A stretch of 64,000 bases of DNA, from IMG/VR virus record IMGVR_UViG_3300022843_000001, positions 32,001 to 96,000 of that record; one strand, given 5' to 3'. A model generated the notes under the pieces. It was not told where the DNA came from. It made no database searches and was given only the letters and a program-made list of their open reading frames with translations. Shown one piece after another: positions 4,955-17,046 of this stretch. This DNA comes from a virus. A program made the position numbers and the translations under genes. Positions within the stretch are counted from its first letter, which is position 1; each line of letters starts with the position of its first letter.

Positions 4955-5187
4955 AATTTAATCTCTTTAGTGGATATATCTTTTATTCGTCGAATTCTAA
5001 GATTGATATAATGATTATATTCAAGACCGATCATGTCTCCAATCTCAAGATGCGTCATAAATTTTCTAACACCTTCAGATGTTGTCATAACAAAATCGTC
5101 GGGATACATATCAAAGAACTCTTGGAGAGTTAGTATTTCATAATCTCCTTGATAATCAATGTCATATTTACGGACCTTGAATAACAT
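4951..5187 (-). CDS. Hypothetical protein
   Basis: ORF track; tight packing. Confidence 0.55.
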   Translation of the reverse strand: MLFKVRKYDIDYQGDYEILTLQEFFDMYPDDFVMTTSEGVRKFMTHLEIGDMIGLEYNHYINLRIRRIKDISTKEIKL

Positions 5188-5188
5188 A

Positions 5189-5500
5189 TTATACGACTAC
5201 GATAGCGTTTTTCTTTTCGCGATATTCAACACCGCGAGCACGAATACATTTAAAACCATCGGCACCGCCAAATTCGATTTCTTCATTCGGATCAAGATCT
5301 AGATCATTCATCATCTCGTTTGTTACAAGAGAGTAACGACCCTTAAGCAAGGTATGAACCTTTGCAAATTTATATTCAACAGTGATTTCTTTAGAGTGTG
5401 ATATCAATGAACCTAGTCCACCTGACTTCAGGTTGTCCATACAGAATTCAGAGTAACGGCCGCCGTTTGAGTCAGTAGTTTGGAAAGCAGGATTGTACAT
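5189..5500 (-). CDS. Early hypothetical protein (true start MYNPAF)
   Basis: Start follows the cassette leader GAAGAGACTAAAAAT. Confidence 0.6.
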   Translation of the reverse strand: MYNPAFQTTDSNGGRYSEFCMDNLKSGGLGSLISHSKEITVEYKFAKVHTLLKGRYSLVTNEMMNDLDLDPNEEIEFGGADGFKCIRARGVEYREKKNAIVVV

Positions 5501-5620
5501 ATTTTTAGTCTCTTCAATTAATTTATACATATATTATACCATGGTTGGGGTATAATGTCAACAACTAATTTCAGTTTAGTTATAATTAGTTGTTATATCG
5601 TTAGAATTAGTTGTTATACG
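5501..5620 (-). repeat. Early promoter cassette copy (leader + TTGACA-17-TATAAT + upstream GTTATA motifs)
   Basis: -35 at 5556-5561, -10 at 5533-5538; spacer is an inverted repeat ATTATACC..GGTATAAT. Confidence 0.85.
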
Positions 5621-11543: not shown

Positions 11544-12077
11544 TTTGTTTCTTTTCAATGTTCTAGTTGCATTGGTCACCGTTGCGGCACAACTAGAACT
11601 ACAATATTTGTTCTTTCGTTTTTTATAAGATATAGCATCATGACAATATTCACATATCTTAGGAGATTCTTTATATATAGCTTGAGTCTTATAATGTCGG
11701 GCATTAGCTTTTTCTGATGCCCCATTTTCATTAGCTATGCGCATTGCCTTTTGATTTTTAAGTTTTCTCAATTTCTCATTAGAGTTGATATAGTCCCATC
11801 CACCAGAACCACCTAATTTTAGGTTATAGGTATTAGATTCAGCAATGAAATCAAGATTAACAATTTCAGATTCCTTGTTAAACATTTCCTCTGGGTTGTC
11901 ATAAACGAATAAGATTTCTTTTGTGAATTTGTCTAATCCATGTTTGTCCTGAGCGTATTTTAAGTATTTTCCAGAACCCATATAATTGTCGTTCAAATTT
12001 TTGGTCTTATGTGTTCCAATATAGAACTTGCCATTGATTTGATTTGAAATCTTATAAACAGTGTATTTTATTTCCAT
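11526..12077 (-). mobile_element. GIY-YIG (Seg-like) homing endonuclease inside tRNA array
   Basis: [21 protein letters not shown]...YMGSG, YNLKLGG, C-terminal CEYC...YCSSSC; late promoter TATAAATA at 12083-12090; 3' end overlaps tRNA-Tyr. Confidence 0.85.
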
Positions 12078-12948: not shown

Positions 12949-13103
12949 TGGCATTCCCGATAGGACTCGAACCCTGAACTTGACTTTAGAAGAATCGTGT
13001 GATTTCCAGTTTTACCATACACGCATTATTTGTTATCATGTAATATACACGTTACCTTATATCGACTTATTGCAACGTGCCTATCCAATTAGACTACGGG
13101 AAC
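12949..13103 (-). tRNA. tRNA-Arg(TCT) with ~80-nt insertion containing a second D-arm
   Basis: Acceptor GTTCCCG/CGGGAAT 155 nt apart; D-arm GTCT-AATTGGAT-AGGC; anticodon GATT-CTTCTAA-AGTC; T-loop TTCGAGT; CCA. Confidence 0.6.
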
Positions 13104-13147
13104 ATTAAATTGCACAGTAACATTGCTGTTGTTACTGTTTTAAAAAT

Positions 13148-13224
13148 TGGCTCCAAACCTAGGCTACGATCCTAGCACGCTTGCATTAACAGTGCAATGC
13201 CCCCACCTAGAGGGCCCGTTTGGA
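13148..13224 (-). tRNA. tRNA-Asn(GTT), ATCGTAG T-loop
   Basis: TTGCA-CTGTTAA-TGCAA, G73, CCA. Confidence 0.9.
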
Positions 13225-13300
13225 ATAAATTGGCTCAACCGTATTTTTTTATAAGGCAGCTGAGTTCCTCCTTAGATGATTTACAATTTTTTTTCTACGA

Positions 13301-13546
13301 TCAAGAGTTCGAACTCAAAGAAAGTTTATAAAAATTGTTGCTGCAGCACTGACATCTCAGTTGAATCGTAAGAATACTTTTTGATGGTGATCTGCAAACC
13401 ATATGCAGCGTTATTACCATTAAAAAGTAATCTTTGATTGTTTTCTTAAAATTTGACTTACCCTTTCGAGTATAATCTTTTTTCTTGTCACGCATTACAA
13501 CAGACTTGTTATAAGTACGAGCATGTTTTGCCACTGGATTTTTCAT
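13301..13546 (-). CDS. Small basic protein (MKNPVAKHARTYNK...)
   Basis: Strong GGAGGA RBS before Met24 of the ORF-track entry. Confidence 0.55.
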   Translation of the reverse strand: MKNPVAKHARTYNKSVVMRDKKKDYTRKGKSNFKKTIKDYFLMVITLHMVCRSPSKSILTIQLRCQCCSNNFYKLSLSSNS

Positions 13547-13737
13547 CCCGTTCCTCCTATGAAAGATTAATAAAGGCATCTGATTGGCTGCCCAGCAACT
13601 GAGCACTCGCACCAATCATATCCTCGCGGTGATTCTATCATCAAATAGTTAGCGAATCACCGCTTTGTATATTCTAATTTATTGAAGATCATTCATCAGA
13701 GGAACACCCCGATGTATTTCTTATTTCTTATACATGT

Positions 13738-13766
13738 ATTATAACATGGTTTTTCGAACTTGTCAA
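13738..13766 (-). promoter_or_regulatory. Sigma70-type early promoter (one of ~30 in window)
   Basis: TTGACA-17-TATAAT. Others at 3214-3242, 4371-4399, 7723-7751, 13958-13986, 14392-14420, 16396-16424, 18090-18118, 20747-20775, 28986-29014, 29857-29885, 39197-39225, 43906-43934, 56064-56092, 59893-59921, 61191-61219, 63757-63785. Confidence 0.85.
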
Positions 13767-14023
13767 TCTTTTTTCTTAATTTTCTTTATAATTAATTGTT
13801 ATATCGTTATAATTATAAAGAAAATTAAGGCCTGATTTGCAGGCCTTAACCATATCTTATGTCGTCTTCTTCTATATTTTTCTATTTTTCAACTAAAGGA
13901 ATTCTTAATTCTTGATTCTTGATCAGCATTTACAAATTCCCAATTTCCTATACATTCATTATAACAGGATTTAGTACCTGTGTCAACAACTAATTGCAAT
14001 ATTCTTATAATTAGATTCAGTAC

Positions 14024-14191
14024 TTATCGTAGTGAACTAATGATATCAGCGATGGAAGCGGGTTTAGCTTGACTGTACGTCTTTACAGCATATTCATAAT
14101 TATTATCAAGCATTTTTGCTACATCATTCTCATTGTTTCCCCATTTTAATAACAATTTAGTTACCTTGGATTTGAATTTATTCTGTATCAT
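14024..14191 (-). CDS. Small early protein, 55 aa (MIQNKFKSKVTKLLLKWGNNE...)
   Basis: Hand translation; directly behind cassette. Confidence 0.55.
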   Translation of the reverse strand: MIQNKFKSKVTKLLLKWGNNENDVAKMLDNNYEYAVKTYSQAKPASIADIISSLR

Positions 14192-14291
14192 AATATTTCT
14201 CAATTTCTATACATGTATTATACCATAGTCCCGGCAATATGTCAACAACTAATTTCAGTTTAGTTAGAACTTATGGTTATATCGATATAAT
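14192..14291 (-). repeat. Early promoter cassette copy
   Basis: -35 14240-14245, -10 14217-14222, near-palindrome 14276-14291. Confidence 0.85.
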
Positions 14292-14292
14292 T

Positions 14293-14366
14293 TGGTTCTC
14301 AATGATGGTAACGATCCACCGTCGTTCGGTTATCAGCCGAATGCTCTACCTTTGAGCTAATCGAGA
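14293..14366 (-). tRNA. tRNA-Ile(GAT), ATCGTTA T-loop
   Basis: TTCGG-CTGATAA-CCGAA, CCA. Confidence 0.9.
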
Positions 14367-14445
14367 ATAATTTCTCATTTCCTATACATTTATTATAACA
14401 GGATTTTGTGCCTATGTCAACCTTTATTTTTAATTTATTCAGTCC

Positions 14446-14479
14446 AAAAAAAACCCCAATCTGTGAAGAGTTGGGGTTT
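14446..14479 (-). terminator. Intrinsic terminator of putative attenuator 2
   Basis: AAACCCCAA-11 nt-TTGGGGTTT then TTTTT. Confidence 0.85.
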
Positions 14480-14509
14480 GGTATTCTTGAATATGGTTTT
14501 TATATCAAG

Positions 14510-14620
14510 TTATACTTTCCCCAAGCCAATATCGGCCATGCTCGCCCAATTGCCGCGATCATTGATCGTCGGATATTGAATCGATATAAACTGTTGTCTT
14601 AGGGAAGTCATTTTGCTCAT
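14510..14620 (-). CDS. Putative leader peptide 2, 36 aa
   Basis: MSKMTSLRQQFISIQYPTINDRGNWASMADIGLGKV; ends within the 5' strand of an antiterminator hairpin. Confidence 0.6.
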   Translation of the reverse strand: MSKMTSLRQQFISIQYPTINDRGNWASMADIGLGKV

Positions 14621-14668
14621 TAATTTTGGTTATGTATTATATATACAAGTTTTGTGCTTAATCTAAAT

Positions 14669-15112
14669 TTATTTTAAACTAAATGATTCACCACATCCAC
14701 ATGCCTGTCCTGCCAGTGGATTGTTAAATGTCAAGCCAGACTCGAATAGTTTCTTAACGTAGTCAACTTCCATTCCATCGATAAACAATATAGATTTCTT
14801 ATCAACAAATATAGACACGCCGTCATGAGCATCCGTGAACTTGTAATCATATTCATCAGGCGTCTCCACGAATTCAACCAGATATTGATAACCACCACAA
14901 CCAGCACCTTCTACACCAAATCGAACTCCTATAGTCTCGATTCCACGGTTATCAATCTCCCATTTGATAAATTGTGATGCATCTTTGGTTAATGTCAAAC
15001 CCACAACCTCAAGTTTTTGTGCAGGTATATTGAAATTTATGTCTGGCTCGATATTCACGATATCTCTGCTTGCTTTGCGGACTGCAGCATAGTAATGTGC
15101 TTTCTGATCCAC
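14669..15112 (-). CDS. iscA: Fe-S cluster assembly A-type carrier (IscA/HesB family)
   Basis: GVRFGVEGAGCGGYQY, VDKKS...IDGMEVDY, NNP....CGCGESFS. Confidence 0.9.
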   Translation of the reverse strand: MDQKAHYYAAVRKASRDIVNIEPDINFNIPAQKLEVVGLTLTKDASQFIKWEIDNRGIETIGVRFGVEGAGCGGYQYLVEFVETPDEYDYKFTDAHDGVSIFVDKKSILFIDGMEVDYVKKLFESGLTFNNPLAGQACGCGESFSLK

Positions 15113-15276
15113 CTCATAAACATAATGGCCCGATCTGAGGCCATTAATGAAGCGCCGCCCACATCAGCAATAGGTACTGGGAAATTAAAACCACAAGCAG
15201 TAGAGTACCACAATTCCCCTTCTCTGTAATATTGGAAGGTTACTTGCTTGTTCTTGACCATGTCTTTGATATTCAT
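15055..15276 (-). CDS. Conserved phage hypothetical protein (MNIKDMVKNKQVTFQYYREGELWY)
   Basis: AGGA RBS; the longer ORF-track start is just read-through of tRNA-Leu. Confidence 0.6.
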   Translation of the reverse strand: MNIKDMVKNKQVTFQYYREGELWYSTACGFNFPVPIADVGGASLMASDRAIMFMRWIRKHITMLQSAKQAEIS

Positions 15277-15301
15277 AATATTTCCTGTTTCCTGTTTAAA
15301 A

Positions 15302-15378
15302 TGGTACGTCGAGCGGGAGTCGAACCCGCAACATCTGGATTTTAAGTCCAGCGCCTCTGCCAATTGGACCACCGACGC
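15302..15378 (-). tRNA. tRNA-Leu(TAA)
   Basis: CTGGA-CTTAAAA-TCCAG, short variable arm, CCA. Confidence 0.9.
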
Positions 15379-15384
15379 ATAATT

Positions 15385-15462
15385 TGGTACCACCACTCGG
15401 ATTCGAACCGAGACATTAACTACTTTTGAAACAGTCCCCTCTGCCAATTGGGGTATGGTGGT
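15385..15462 (-). tRNA. tRNA-Leu(CAA)
   Basis: ACTGT-TTCAAAA-GTAGT, CCA. Confidence 0.85.
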
Positions 15463-15489
15463 ATTATTCTAACCTAAGTCAGATTAATT

Positions 15490-15564
15490 TGGTGTCTCTA
15501 GGGGGAATCGAACCCCCTACTCTTGGGTGAAAGCCAAGTGATCTAACCGGTAATCCATAGAGAC
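15490..15564 (-). tRNA. tRNA-Glu(TTC)
   Basis: CTTGG-CTTTCAC-CCAAG, CCA. Confidence 0.9.
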
Positions 15565-15570
15565 GTAAAA

Positions 15571-15646
15571 TGGTGGGTCCACAGAGATTCGAACTCTGAT
15601 AACCGGATTAAAAGTCCGGGATAATTGCCCTTTATATTATGGACCC
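15571..15646 (-). tRNA. tRNA-Lys(TTT)
   Basis: CCGGA-CTTTTAA-TCCGG, CCA. Confidence 0.9.
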
Positions 15647-15682
15647 AGGTCCGCTTTGTTATCGTGTAGCGTTCACGCATTT

Positions 15683-15765
15683 TGGTACGAGGAGAGGGAC
15701 TCGAACCCTCAAAGGCCTGGTTTCTAAAACCAGTAGATCTGCCAATTCTCATTAGCCACCCTCGC
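15683..15765 (-). tRNA. tRNA-Leu(TAG)
   Basis: CTGGT-TTTAGAA-ACCAG, enlarged D-loop, CCA. Confidence 0.85.
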
Positions 15766-15782
15766 ATTAAATCCTCAACTTA

Positions 15783-16010
15783 TTAAGTTGTTTTTCTTTT
15801 TCTATATCGTAGACGGTTGCGGCAAGCGTAAGCAGTCCCGCGGTTATTATCAACTCCCATCATCAAATTAGTGATCTCATTAAATACAGCAACTGGCACC
15901 TCGCCATTATCCATAATATGACTATTGGCAAGTTTACCTTTACCCATCTTACGAAGATGTTGCATTTTGACCTTAATCATAACGGGCATTGTTTTCCATA
16001 TAACCATCAT
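15783..16010 (-). CDS. Small hypothetical protein in tRNA block 1
   Basis: GAGA RBS, fills inter-tRNA gap. Confidence 0.45.
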   Translation of the reverse strand: MMVIWKTMPVMIKVKMQHLRKMGKGKLANSHIMDNGEVPVAVFNEITNLMMGVDNNRGTAYACRNRLRYRKRKTT

Positions 16011-16024
16011 ACTATTCTCTTATT

Positions 16025-16102
16025 TGGTACATCTGACGGGGATCGAACCCGCATTTCCCTGATTGAAAGTCAAGTTGCCTATTCCAGTTAGCAGACAGAT
16101 GT
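16025..16102 (-). tRNA. tRNA-Glu(TTC) second copy
   Basis: CTTGA-CTTTCAA-TCAGG, CCA. Confidence 0.85.
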
Positions 16103-16122
16103 ATAATTCTTTTAATATATTT

Positions 16123-16200
16123 TGGGGTGTAATCTGGGTTTCGAACCCAACCCTCATGAGTCACAGTCATGCATGCTTCCAATTACACCTATCACACCCC
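16123..16200 (-). tRNA. tRNA-His(GTG)
   Basis: CATGA-CTGTGAC-TCATG, G-1, CCA. Confidence 0.9.
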
Positions 16201-16218
16201 AAAATATATTCTACCCAT

Positions 16219-16249
16219 AAAAAAACCCGCGATATTTCTATGGCGGGTT
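16219..16249 (-). terminator. Intrinsic terminator of putative attenuator 1, immediately upstream of first tRNA
   Basis: AACCCGC-12 nt-GCGGGTT then TTTTT. Confidence 0.85.
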
Positions 16250-16283
16250 AACGTTGTCTCTTATTATAAGTTTGTTACTTTCT

Positions 16284-16358
16284 TTAAGACAATGCATCCC
16301 CGCTACACAATTTCTCGTGTTTTAAGAGTTGTTCTAGTTTTAAAATTAATGTTTTCAT
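16284..16358 (-). CDS. Putative leader peptide 1, 24 aa
   Basis: MKTLILKLEQLLKHEKLCSGDALS; preceded by late promoter TATAAATA (16364-16371) and sigma70 promoter (16396-16424). Confidence 0.6.
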   Translation of the reverse strand: MKTLILKLEQLLKHEKLCSGDALS

Positions 16359-16427
16359 ATGTTTATTTATACGTTTTATTATTTAATATATAGTTATTAT
16401 AACAGGTTTTTACACCTTTGTCAACCT

Positions 16428-16664
16428 TTATTTTGGTGCTTCGTGAGACCAACCCATATCTTTCATTTTTAGATGATCTGCTTTAACCTTTGCCATTTTG
16501 CTTTTTCCTGTCTTAGGGTCATACATCATGTGCGGCTCAAAATCATCTTCTTTGACACATTTATTAACCATCTTACCTTTGTTCTTTCCAGTACCGTCCT
16601 GCTTACCGTCTTTCTTATAGCCGTCCCAGCAATCTTGTTCTCTAAAAAATTTAAATGTTTTCAT
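16428..16664 (-). CDS. Putative head internal protein (CWDGY motif)
   Basis: N-terminus MKTFKFFRE resembles T4 capsid-targeting sequence. Confidence 0.6.
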   Translation of the reverse strand: MKTFKFFREQDCWDGYKKDGKQDGTGKNKGKMVNKCVKEDDFEPHMMYDPKTGKSKMAKVKADHLKMKDMGWSHEAPK

Positions 16665-16665
16665 A

Positions 16666-17046
16666 TCATACCTTAATTTTAGGGTCGTTAGACTTAAAGT
16701 CTTTCTTTCTCATGATAGTCTTTGTGACCATCTCTTTATCTTTTGGACGTGCGTTTATGACAAACGGTATGTTTACATCGTTTGCAACATCATTAATAAC
16801 TGCCTCGAAATTGTCTGGAAAGTCTGCCATAGATTTTCCCATTTTTTTCCAAGCTTTTCTGAACAGACTTATTAACTCTGCAGCAGTAATGGGTTTTCCA
16901 TTTCTCTCATCATTCATTCTGTCGGCGAAATGTCGTGTAAAAGATACATCGATGTTTGCCTTTTTAAACAACTTGTCGGCAAACTTCTCTACCTGATTAA
17001 GTTGATCTTGAGTTATTTCTTCGTTAAAGTTTTTAAAGGATTTCAT
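16666..17046 (-). CDS. Putative head internal protein
   Basis: MKSFKNFNEE N-terminus; late promoter TATAAATA 17052-17059. Confidence 0.65.
   Translation of the reverse strand: MKSFKNFNEEITQDQLNQVEKFADKLFKKANIDVSFTRHFADRMNDERNGKPITAAELISLFRKAWKKMGKSMADFPDNFEAVINDVANDVNIPFVINARPKDKEMVTKTIMRKKDFKSNDPKIKV

Follow-up and report, generated by a model that had tools for sequence, protein, structure and literature searches.

A putative leader-peptide attenuator upstream of the His, Glu, Leu and Lys tRNA genes of a T4-like phage

Seven phage tRNA genes, which read His, Glu, Leu and Lys codons, are separated from the only recognisable promoter that could transcribe them by a short open reading frame (ORF) and an intrinsic terminator, and this arrangement raises the question of how the genes behind the terminator are expressed. 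The locus lies on the minus strand of a 64,000-nucleotide (nt) stretch of DNA, the window, which comprises bases 32001-96000 of the complete virus record IMGVR_UViG_3300022843_000001 (198,785 bp, 36% G+C). The record encodes T4-type replication proteins, including a DNA polymerase, a two-part topoisomerase II and a DnaB-like helicase, and its source is a T4-like phage; the whole genome has 21 tRNA genes. The sequence comparisons presented here make it probable that the ORF and the terminator belong to a ribosome-mediated (leader-peptide) transcription attenuator of the trp/his type, which controls the phage tRNA operon by sensing codons. To our knowledge, the regulation by phages of their own tRNA genes is essentially undescribed, and full-text literature searches turned up no account of tRNA genes under leader-peptide control.

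A preliminary description of this DNA, made from the letters alone, had placed in front of tRNA-His a sigma-70 promoter, a late-promoter motif five bases before an ATG, a leader ORF with no Shine-Dalgarno sequence, and a terminator, and all of these were recovered at the positions that it had given. The promoter (16424-16396), a TTGACA-17-TATAAT element with a TG extension (TTGACA-N14-TGnTATAAT), agrees with the consensus at 12/12 positions and is the only one recognisable for the His-Glu-Leu-Lys tRNA block. The motif TATAAATA occupies positions 16371-16364, 5 bases 5' of the ATG at 16358. The leader ORF (16358-16284) encodes MKTLILKLEQLLKHEKLCSGDALS in 24 codons followed by UAA, and was annotated by JGI as a 24-aa gene in a contig identical to the window (L342). 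Codons 13-18 include a 6-bp hairpin, P1 (16320-16305, ACACGA-GAAA-UUGUGU), which lies 1 nt 5' of a long antiterminator helix, P2 (16303-16243). The proximal pairs of P2 join GCGGG (16303-16299) to CCCGC (16247-16243), the distal pairs join UUGUCUU (16292-16286) to GAGACAA (16260-16254), and the leader stop codon (16286-16284) stands where the 5' strand of P2 ends. The terminator (16249-16219; AACCCGC, a 12-nt loop, GCGGGUU and a run of 7 U in all; -11.9 kcal/mol) has as its 5' arm the CCCGC that is also the 3' strand of P2. tRNA-His starts at 16197, 22 nt 3' of the terminator U-run.

The pairing of codons 18-24 that had been proposed to sequester the 5' strand of the terminator proved to be the fold of minimum free energy when the nascent RNA was folded as far as the last base ahead of the terminator 3' arm. 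In the window this fold consists of P1 and then the long P2, built from GCGGG/CCCGC, GC/GU and UUGUCUU/GAGACAA, and leaves the first 38 nt unpaired. The 99-nt stretch folds at -25.0 kcal/mol, with a z of -2.65 against 200 shuffles. A permissive cmscan of positions 13000-17000 against Rfam returned only tRNAs and chance matches, with no leader family, T-box or riboswitch among them.

Relatives of the element were recovered by using neighbouring proteins as anchors, and all of them came from related uncultured phages. Seven further versions bring the number of distinct versions to eight, in five lineages. L007 (also L293 and L361) and L005 (also L004) were found via a 126-aa neighbour, L283 (also L355-357) by a metagenome pattern scan, and L352, L354, L358 and L359 via homologues of a 67-aa ORF located upstream in L283. 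The leader peptides of the eight versions are MKTLILKLEQLLKHEKLCSGDALS, MKTLLLKLEQLEKHEKSCAGMVSFS, MTMLLVQLEHNMNHEKSCKGVALS, MNTLTRKLEQLHKHEKSCAGSVLIEGHRD, MNTLTLKLEQLHKHEKSCAGSVLNEGYVP, MNTLTLKLEQLHKHEKSCAGSVLTEGHRD, MNTTRKLHLEHLLLEEKSSAGSVLTKEWV and MNTTRKLHLEHLLLEEKSSAGSVLTVWWQA. Common to all eight are an ORF of 24-30 codons, P1, a P2 that overlaps the terminator 5' arm (CCCGC), and a stop codon located apically in P2, immediately 3' of the last pairs formed by its 5' strand. Many samples, among them the saline-lake JGI samples 3300007074 and 3300022867 and further JGI and ENA samples, yielded contigs identical to the window, and the element region does not vary among these contigs (L340-347).

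The element is missing where the relative of the 126-aa neighbour has 68% identity or less (L006, L348-351), and likewise in P0079; P0078 equals L007. Loose DNA patterns, run against IMG/VR and the JGI metagenomes, matched generic terminators, and L283 was the only new version among the matches listed; more specific DNA patterns gave no further versions, and all of their matches in genome contigs were due to chance. Among GenBank phages, matches were confined to tRNAs and one unrelated short stretch, with nothing in the leader, and a look-alike search with the sequence of the element retrieved this genome alone. Two nhmmer matches, L284 and L312, were considered as versions and rejected as ordinary bacterial terminators.

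In each of the eight versions the nascent RNA folds into P1 and then at once into P2. The P1 stems are ACACGA/UUGUGU, GCAUGA/UCAUGC, GCAUGA/UCAUGU or ACUCGA/UCGAGU, in which two of the pairs differ at both positions (the third from A-U to U-A and the fourth from C-G to U-A), and the P1 loop ranges from GAAA up to GGAAAAA by an in-frame addition of 3 nt. Since P1 of L358 and L359 was mis-gapped by both MAFFT and the covariance model, the formal covariation count understates P1, and its covariation was therefore read from the folds of the single sequences. The proximal part of P2, GCGGG(UU)/(AA)CCCGC, varies little: in L359 it is lengthened to 9 bp, and in L005 the register shifts to GGGUUG/UAACCC. 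The distal part differs in sequence in almost every version, and the pairing is always kept (UUGUCUU/GAGACAA, GGUAAGCUUC/GAAGCUUAUU, CAUUGUCU/AGACAAUG, UUGAAGGUC/GACUUUCAA, GGAAGGUC/GACCUUUU, GGAAUG/CAUUCU and GGUAUG/CAUACU). The RNAalifold consensus contains P1, the proximal P2 and the next helix, with double changes in 7 of its 20 pairs. In the model-based alignment 83.6% of the cells pair, compared with 76.0% in shuffles, and the covariation score is 0.282, compared with 0.148 in shuffles and 0.03-0.14 with slid partners; neither value was reached in 500 shuffles, and seven pairs were changed on both sides.

Throughout the eight versions the terminator consists of a G+C-rich stem of 7-11 bp followed by 7-8 U, at -11.9 to -15.4 kcal/mol, and its 5' arm shares CCCGC with the 3' strand of P2, so that the two structures are mutually exclusive. 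When the full RNAs were forced into either state, the terminator compared with the antiterminator gave -0.1, -1.4, -3.6, -2.7, +0.1, -1.5, -5.4 and -5.0 kcal/mol. Such near-equal energies point to a bistable design, in which the structure formed first, P2, should matter. The upstream copy of the terminator arm is itself unusual: because GCGGG is rare, with 51 copies on both strands of the genome, a copy within 80 nt of a terminator would be expected by chance in about 1% of cases. In a survey of the genome, an upstream copy of the 3' arm accompanied two of five strict terminators, and both are in the tRNA region.

The leader frame bears a coding signature. It is open in all eight versions, while the other two frames usually have stops; the ATG is conserved, and all changes in ORF length are multiples of three (3 nt added to the P1 loop and, in the E lineage, a net gain of one codon 5' of P2). 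In codons 2-13, which lie outside the helices, the tRNA-linked versions have proportions of synonymous differences (pS) of 0.38-0.88 and of nonsynonymous differences (pN) of 0.04-0.26; Leu-11, for example, is encoded by CTC or by TTA, depending on the version. In L005 compared with the others, pN is about equal to pS.

The composition of the leader follows the tRNA genes behind it. Residues 2-17 contain 13 Lys, Leu, Glu or His (K/L/E/H) among 16 in the window, 13 in L007, 12 in L358 and L359, 11 in L352 and L354, 10 in L283 and 8 in L005, against a K/L/E/H share of 23.5% in the phage proteome. A count of 13 is reached by none, and one of 12 by only 4, of the 53,418 windows of 16 residues in the proteome, and the binomial P for the leader in the window is 1.8e-6. 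Base composition does not account for the excess, as base shuffles of the leader region gave 4.3-5.2 K/L/E/H (P from 0.004 to below 5e-5), and with 20,000 shuffles each, the observed count came up once for the window and never for L007 or L359. Asn, Ile, Phe and Tyr, whose codons are equally A/U-rich, are almost absent from the leader. The tie between a K/L/E/H-rich leader and the downstream tRNAs, which had been suggested from the single sequence, is thus strengthened by the proteome and base-composition nulls.

The gated block itself (16197-15302) consists of tRNA-His(GTG), Glu(TTC), a 75-aa ORF, Leu(TAG), Lys(TTT), Glu(TTC), Leu(CAA) and Leu(TAA). None of the other 14 tRNAs of the genome reads His, Glu, Leu or Lys, and the gated seven are therefore its only ones. 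The block behind the terminator holds tRNAs for these four amino acids exclusively in each lineage: 7 in the window, 8 in L007, 10 in L355 and 10 in L352. In the D lineage a second, divergent tRNA-His copy directly follows the first (L352 4560-4640; L354 627-702); ARAGORN called it in L354 and not in L352. For tRNA-Leu(TAG) (15765-15683), ARAGORN gave a 70-nt gene with the anticodon at position 27 and Rfam an 80-nt match at 15765-15686 with a low score of 34 bits, and its 5' boundary and structure are uncertain. A 73-aa ORF and an IscA/HesB-like Fe-S gene (PF01521) follow 3' of the tRNAs (15276-14669) in the same transcription unit, with no promoter or terminator called between the gated tRNAs and these two genes.

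At the start of the leader, all tRNA-linked lineages share the 8-mer NATAAATA, always placed exactly 5 nt from the ATG. The arrangement of motif, spacer and ATG is TATAAATA-AACAT-ATG in the window, TATAAATA-AACAC-ATG in L007 and GATAAATA-AAACT-ATG in the D and E lineages. The combination NATAAATA-N5-ATG occurs at 7 sites in the genome, 4 of which open ORFs of 126-239 aa; the sites are at window positions 12077, 16358 and 17046 (minus strand) and at genome positions 24082 and 111037 (minus) and 29322 and 143212 (plus). The geometry of T4 late promoters would put the RNA start at the A of the leader AUG. A late-promoter role of the motif 5' of the leader is plausible, and the mRNAs of the NATAAATA sites would then be leaderless. 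Alternatively, TATAAATA could be an A/U-rich translation-initiation region, and the role of the motif is ambiguous, since many early 5' untranslated regions (UTRs) of the phage also begin with GTATAAAT. In L005 the leader ATG abuts the stop codon of a 142-aa gene (TAGATG), as would be expected if the leader must be translated even where it has no promoter of its own.

The early promoter is one of 34 perfect TTGACA-N14-TGnTATAAT promoters in the whole genome (for example at window positions 5561, 5988, 6877, 20775, 25861, 27423, 27794 and 57632 on the minus strand), and a perfect promoter is found at the equivalent position in L007, L283, L352, L354, L358 and L359, but not in the tRNA-less L005. 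A near-identical 5' UTR, ACATGTATAAATTAATTGAAGAGnCTAAATTATG, follows many of the 34. Four perfect promoters on the plus strand (window 20800 and 43958; genome 28479 and 112477) lead into a conserved G-rich leader, AAyTAAGTyyTGCCGrGGCAGGTTGGT, among genes that lie on the minus strand.

From these elements the following mechanism can be proposed. The very strong early promoter and a probable late promoter with its RNA start at the AUG would transcribe the 24-codon leader, and the emerging RNA would fold P1 and then P2, which locks up CCCGC, the 5' arm of the terminator. P1 is a candidate RNA polymerase pause hairpin, which might synchronise polymerase and ribosome. If P2 is intact when the polymerase reaches the U-run, no terminator would form, and transcription would read through into the His, Glu, Leu and Lys tRNAs and three small protein genes. 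A fast ribosome, on the other hand, would unwind the whole 5' strand of P2 and halt in the apical loop; CCCGC would then pair with GCGGGUU, and transcription would stop 22 nt before tRNA-His. With GCGGG at nt 56-60 and the usual ribosome footprint, a ribosome whose A site has come no further than codon 15 would leave GCGGG uncovered. Eleven of the 13 K/L/E/H codons are at or before codon 15, so a stall there would preserve P2 and allow read-through. A shortage of Lys, Leu, Glu or His tRNA would thus stall the ribosome before P2 and switch the tRNA genes on, and the phage tRNAs, by speeding up decoding, would switch the unit down again in a negative feedback. The proposal of an attenuator in the preliminary description gains support from the conserved ORF, the alternative between antiterminator and terminator, and the matching composition across eight versions in five lineages.

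Several observations count against this attenuator, some in a general way and some by favouring a particular alternative. A 1:2 anti-antiterminator, in which upstream codons would pair with the 5' strand of P2, is predicted but not significant (z -0.2 to -1.95), and untranslated RNA would therefore be expected to read through. The geometry is looser in the D and E lineages, where the stop lies 27-30 nt beyond GCGGGUU, too far for a ribosome halted there to cover this strand itself. Because the eight versions all belong to related phages, they do not count as independent samples. The leader also has no core Shine-Dalgarno motif; such a motif is missing in about 70% of the phage ORFs of at least 80 aa, and its absence here therefore carries little weight.

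Further points of this kind concern codon specificity, which is less certain than the switch itself. A second ORF-embedded antiterminator and terminator with the same layout, 'Attenuator 2', lies 1.7 kb downstream of the first and closes the unit (14620-14446; L293 homologue at about 5025-5190). Its 36-aa ORF ends just past UUGGGG, which duplicates the 3' arm of its terminator (CCCCAA-loop-UUGGGGUUUUUUUU), and the three strands covary, with UUGGGG/CCCCAA/UUGGGG in the window against CGGGG/CCCCG/CGGGG in L293. The leader of this second switch has an ordinary composition with no K/L/E/H bias, and a perfect promoter (14420) and tRNA-Ile follow directly 3' of it. The second switch therefore strengthens the case for a functional switch design and weakens that for codon specificity; with an unbiased leader and a separate promoter behind it, the design may sense translation generally. 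In L005, moreover, the design of the first switch precedes an Fe-S gene, with no tRNAs.

It is thus possible, although unlikely, that the first switch is a translation-coupled attenuator that reports on translation in general, in which slow or missing ribosomes on the leader, as under host shut-off, ribosome shortage or cold, would leave P2 intact and give read-through into the tRNA genes, and that its K/L/E/H richness is incidental or serves another purpose, for example an unstructured 5' region. The ordinary leader of the second switch, the retention of the switch in L005 with a less biased leader, and the 38 unpaired nt at the start of the nascent fold would all agree with such general sensing. 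It does not explain, however, why the K/L/E/H excess is far beyond base composition and is kept in the E lineage despite a rearranged peptide, why Asn, Ile, Phe and Tyr are so scarce, or why, in four lineages, the leader favours just those amino acids to which the tRNA block is confined. In L005, which has no downstream tRNAs, the least biased of the leaders and the near equality of pN and pS suggest relaxed constraint, as a single case.

Less likely still is that the locus is an ordinary mini-gene or small RNA, in which a ~170-nt RNA with a 24-aa helical peptide ends at a normal terminator, P2 is a stabilising 3' structure, and the tRNAs are expressed by leak-through or from a weak promoter before tRNA-His. 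Lys, Leu and Glu are the residues classically found in helical peptides, amphipathic helices are typically rich in K/L/E, and pN below pS shows the peptide to be conserved; by its composition alone, the leader could equally be a functional micro-protein. The substitutions, however, preserve the K/L/E/H set and not the order or the hydrophobic pattern: codon 12 is Leu, Glu or His across the tRNA-linked lineages, and KLEQLHKHEK of the D lineage is KLHLEHLLLEEK in the E lineage. A helical peptide would not be expected to tolerate such substitutions, whereas a string of regulatory codons would, and the leader peptides have no Pfam or PHROG family match. Nor would a mini-gene account for a copy of the terminator arm that chance would seldom supply and that is nonetheless kept in all eight versions.

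Also on the side of the mini-gene is a weak -10-like hexamer (TAGAAT/TATAGT; 16211-16206 in the window, minus strand) 7 nt 5' of tRNA-His, which recurs at equivalent positions in most lineages (A, D and E; L283, L352, L358 and L359). This putative promoter has neither a -35 element nor a TG extension and is missing in L007, while the other tRNA units of the phage are directly behind perfect promoters. The phage does contain a unit with no evident switch: at 13986-13823 (minus strand), a perfect promoter (13986) precedes a 15-aa ORF (MLIKNQELRIPLVEK) and a strong 12-bp terminator (13851-13823) within about 130 nt, the next promoter (13766) follows without an intervening gene, and this unit may encode a small RNA or a micro-peptide. 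Attenuator RNAs freed by termination can, in addition, act in trans, as does rnTrpL (PMC6614838).

A translation-independent RNA switch, in which P1 and P2 bind a protein, uncharged tRNA (as T-boxes do) or a small molecule, or act as a thermosensor, with the ORF as a by-product, would suit the conservation of P1 and P2 at the RNA level, the coincidence of the HEK codons with P1 and the near-equal energies of the two states, but it is very improbable given the lack of any Rfam match, T-box and riboswitch families included, the freely varying distal P2 sequence and loops, which are unlike a ligand pocket, the ORF, ATG and frame kept through indels, and the abutting ATG in L005, which points to a need for translation.

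The codon-sensing attenuator is therefore the preferred reading, and a more specific form of it can be put forward tentatively, with the odds somewhat against it. The element might be an amino-acid-resolved sensor of tRNA supply, in which a test peptide gauges the decoding of Lys, Leu, Glu and His codons and turns on the matching tRNA sub-array, with a second, similar switch ahead of the remaining tRNAs; together with RtcB it would form an inducible counter, under negative feedback, to tRNA depletion or anticodon nucleases. An RtcB-type tRNA-splicing/repair ligase gene (9412-8225, minus strand; phrog_1075, E 9e-146) adjoins the tRNA array, which fits a phage that faces host tRNA cleavage. Phage tRNAs are currently regarded as a response to depleted host tRNAs as well as to tRNA-cleaving defences, and they are known to counter such cleavage in the cases of PrrC and tRNA-Lys (PMC10264068) and of PARIS and tRNA-Lys (PMC11464382). 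With a leader-peptide attenuator in front of its tRNA genes, the phage would possess a direct, self-correcting gauge of decoding speed, and a textbook mechanism would be extended from amino-acid supply to tRNA supply. The element, of about 200 nt with a consensus sigma-70 promoter, should suit direct tests in E. coli and in cell-free systems, and could serve as a compact reporter of codon-specific translation speed.

Among known systems, the phage element resembles the enterobacterial leader attenuators (trpL, hisL, leuL, thrL, pheL; ilvGMEDA, ilvBN) in its short ORF rich in regulatory codons, its terminator just 5' of the regulated genes, its antiterminator that shares a strand with the terminator, and a stop codon so placed that a finishing ribosome would remove the antiterminator; the ilvGMEDA and ilvBN leaders are also alike in that several amino acids would be sensed at once in the phage element, as they are in these leaders. 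It differs from these attenuators in being phage-encoded and in its putative control of tRNAs that read the regulatory codons rather than of biosynthetic enzymes, so that it would more likely respond to the supply of tRNAs than to that of amino acids. It also has no match to the Rfam leaders (Trp, His, Leu, Thr) and no clear 1:2 anti-antiterminator, for which reason its RNA, when untranslated, should read through rather than terminate. E. coli pheST, with its leader of Phe codons ahead of phenylalanyl-tRNA synthetase, is likewise a leader attenuator acting on a translation component for the sensed amino acid, but it is bacterial, controls a synthetase and responds to one amino acid. T-box riboswitches share with the phage element a choice between terminator and antiterminator in a 5' leader that reports on specific tRNAs; unlike the much smaller phage element, however, they require no translation and recognise the tRNA by direct binding, for which they use a specifier codon and the T-box bulge.

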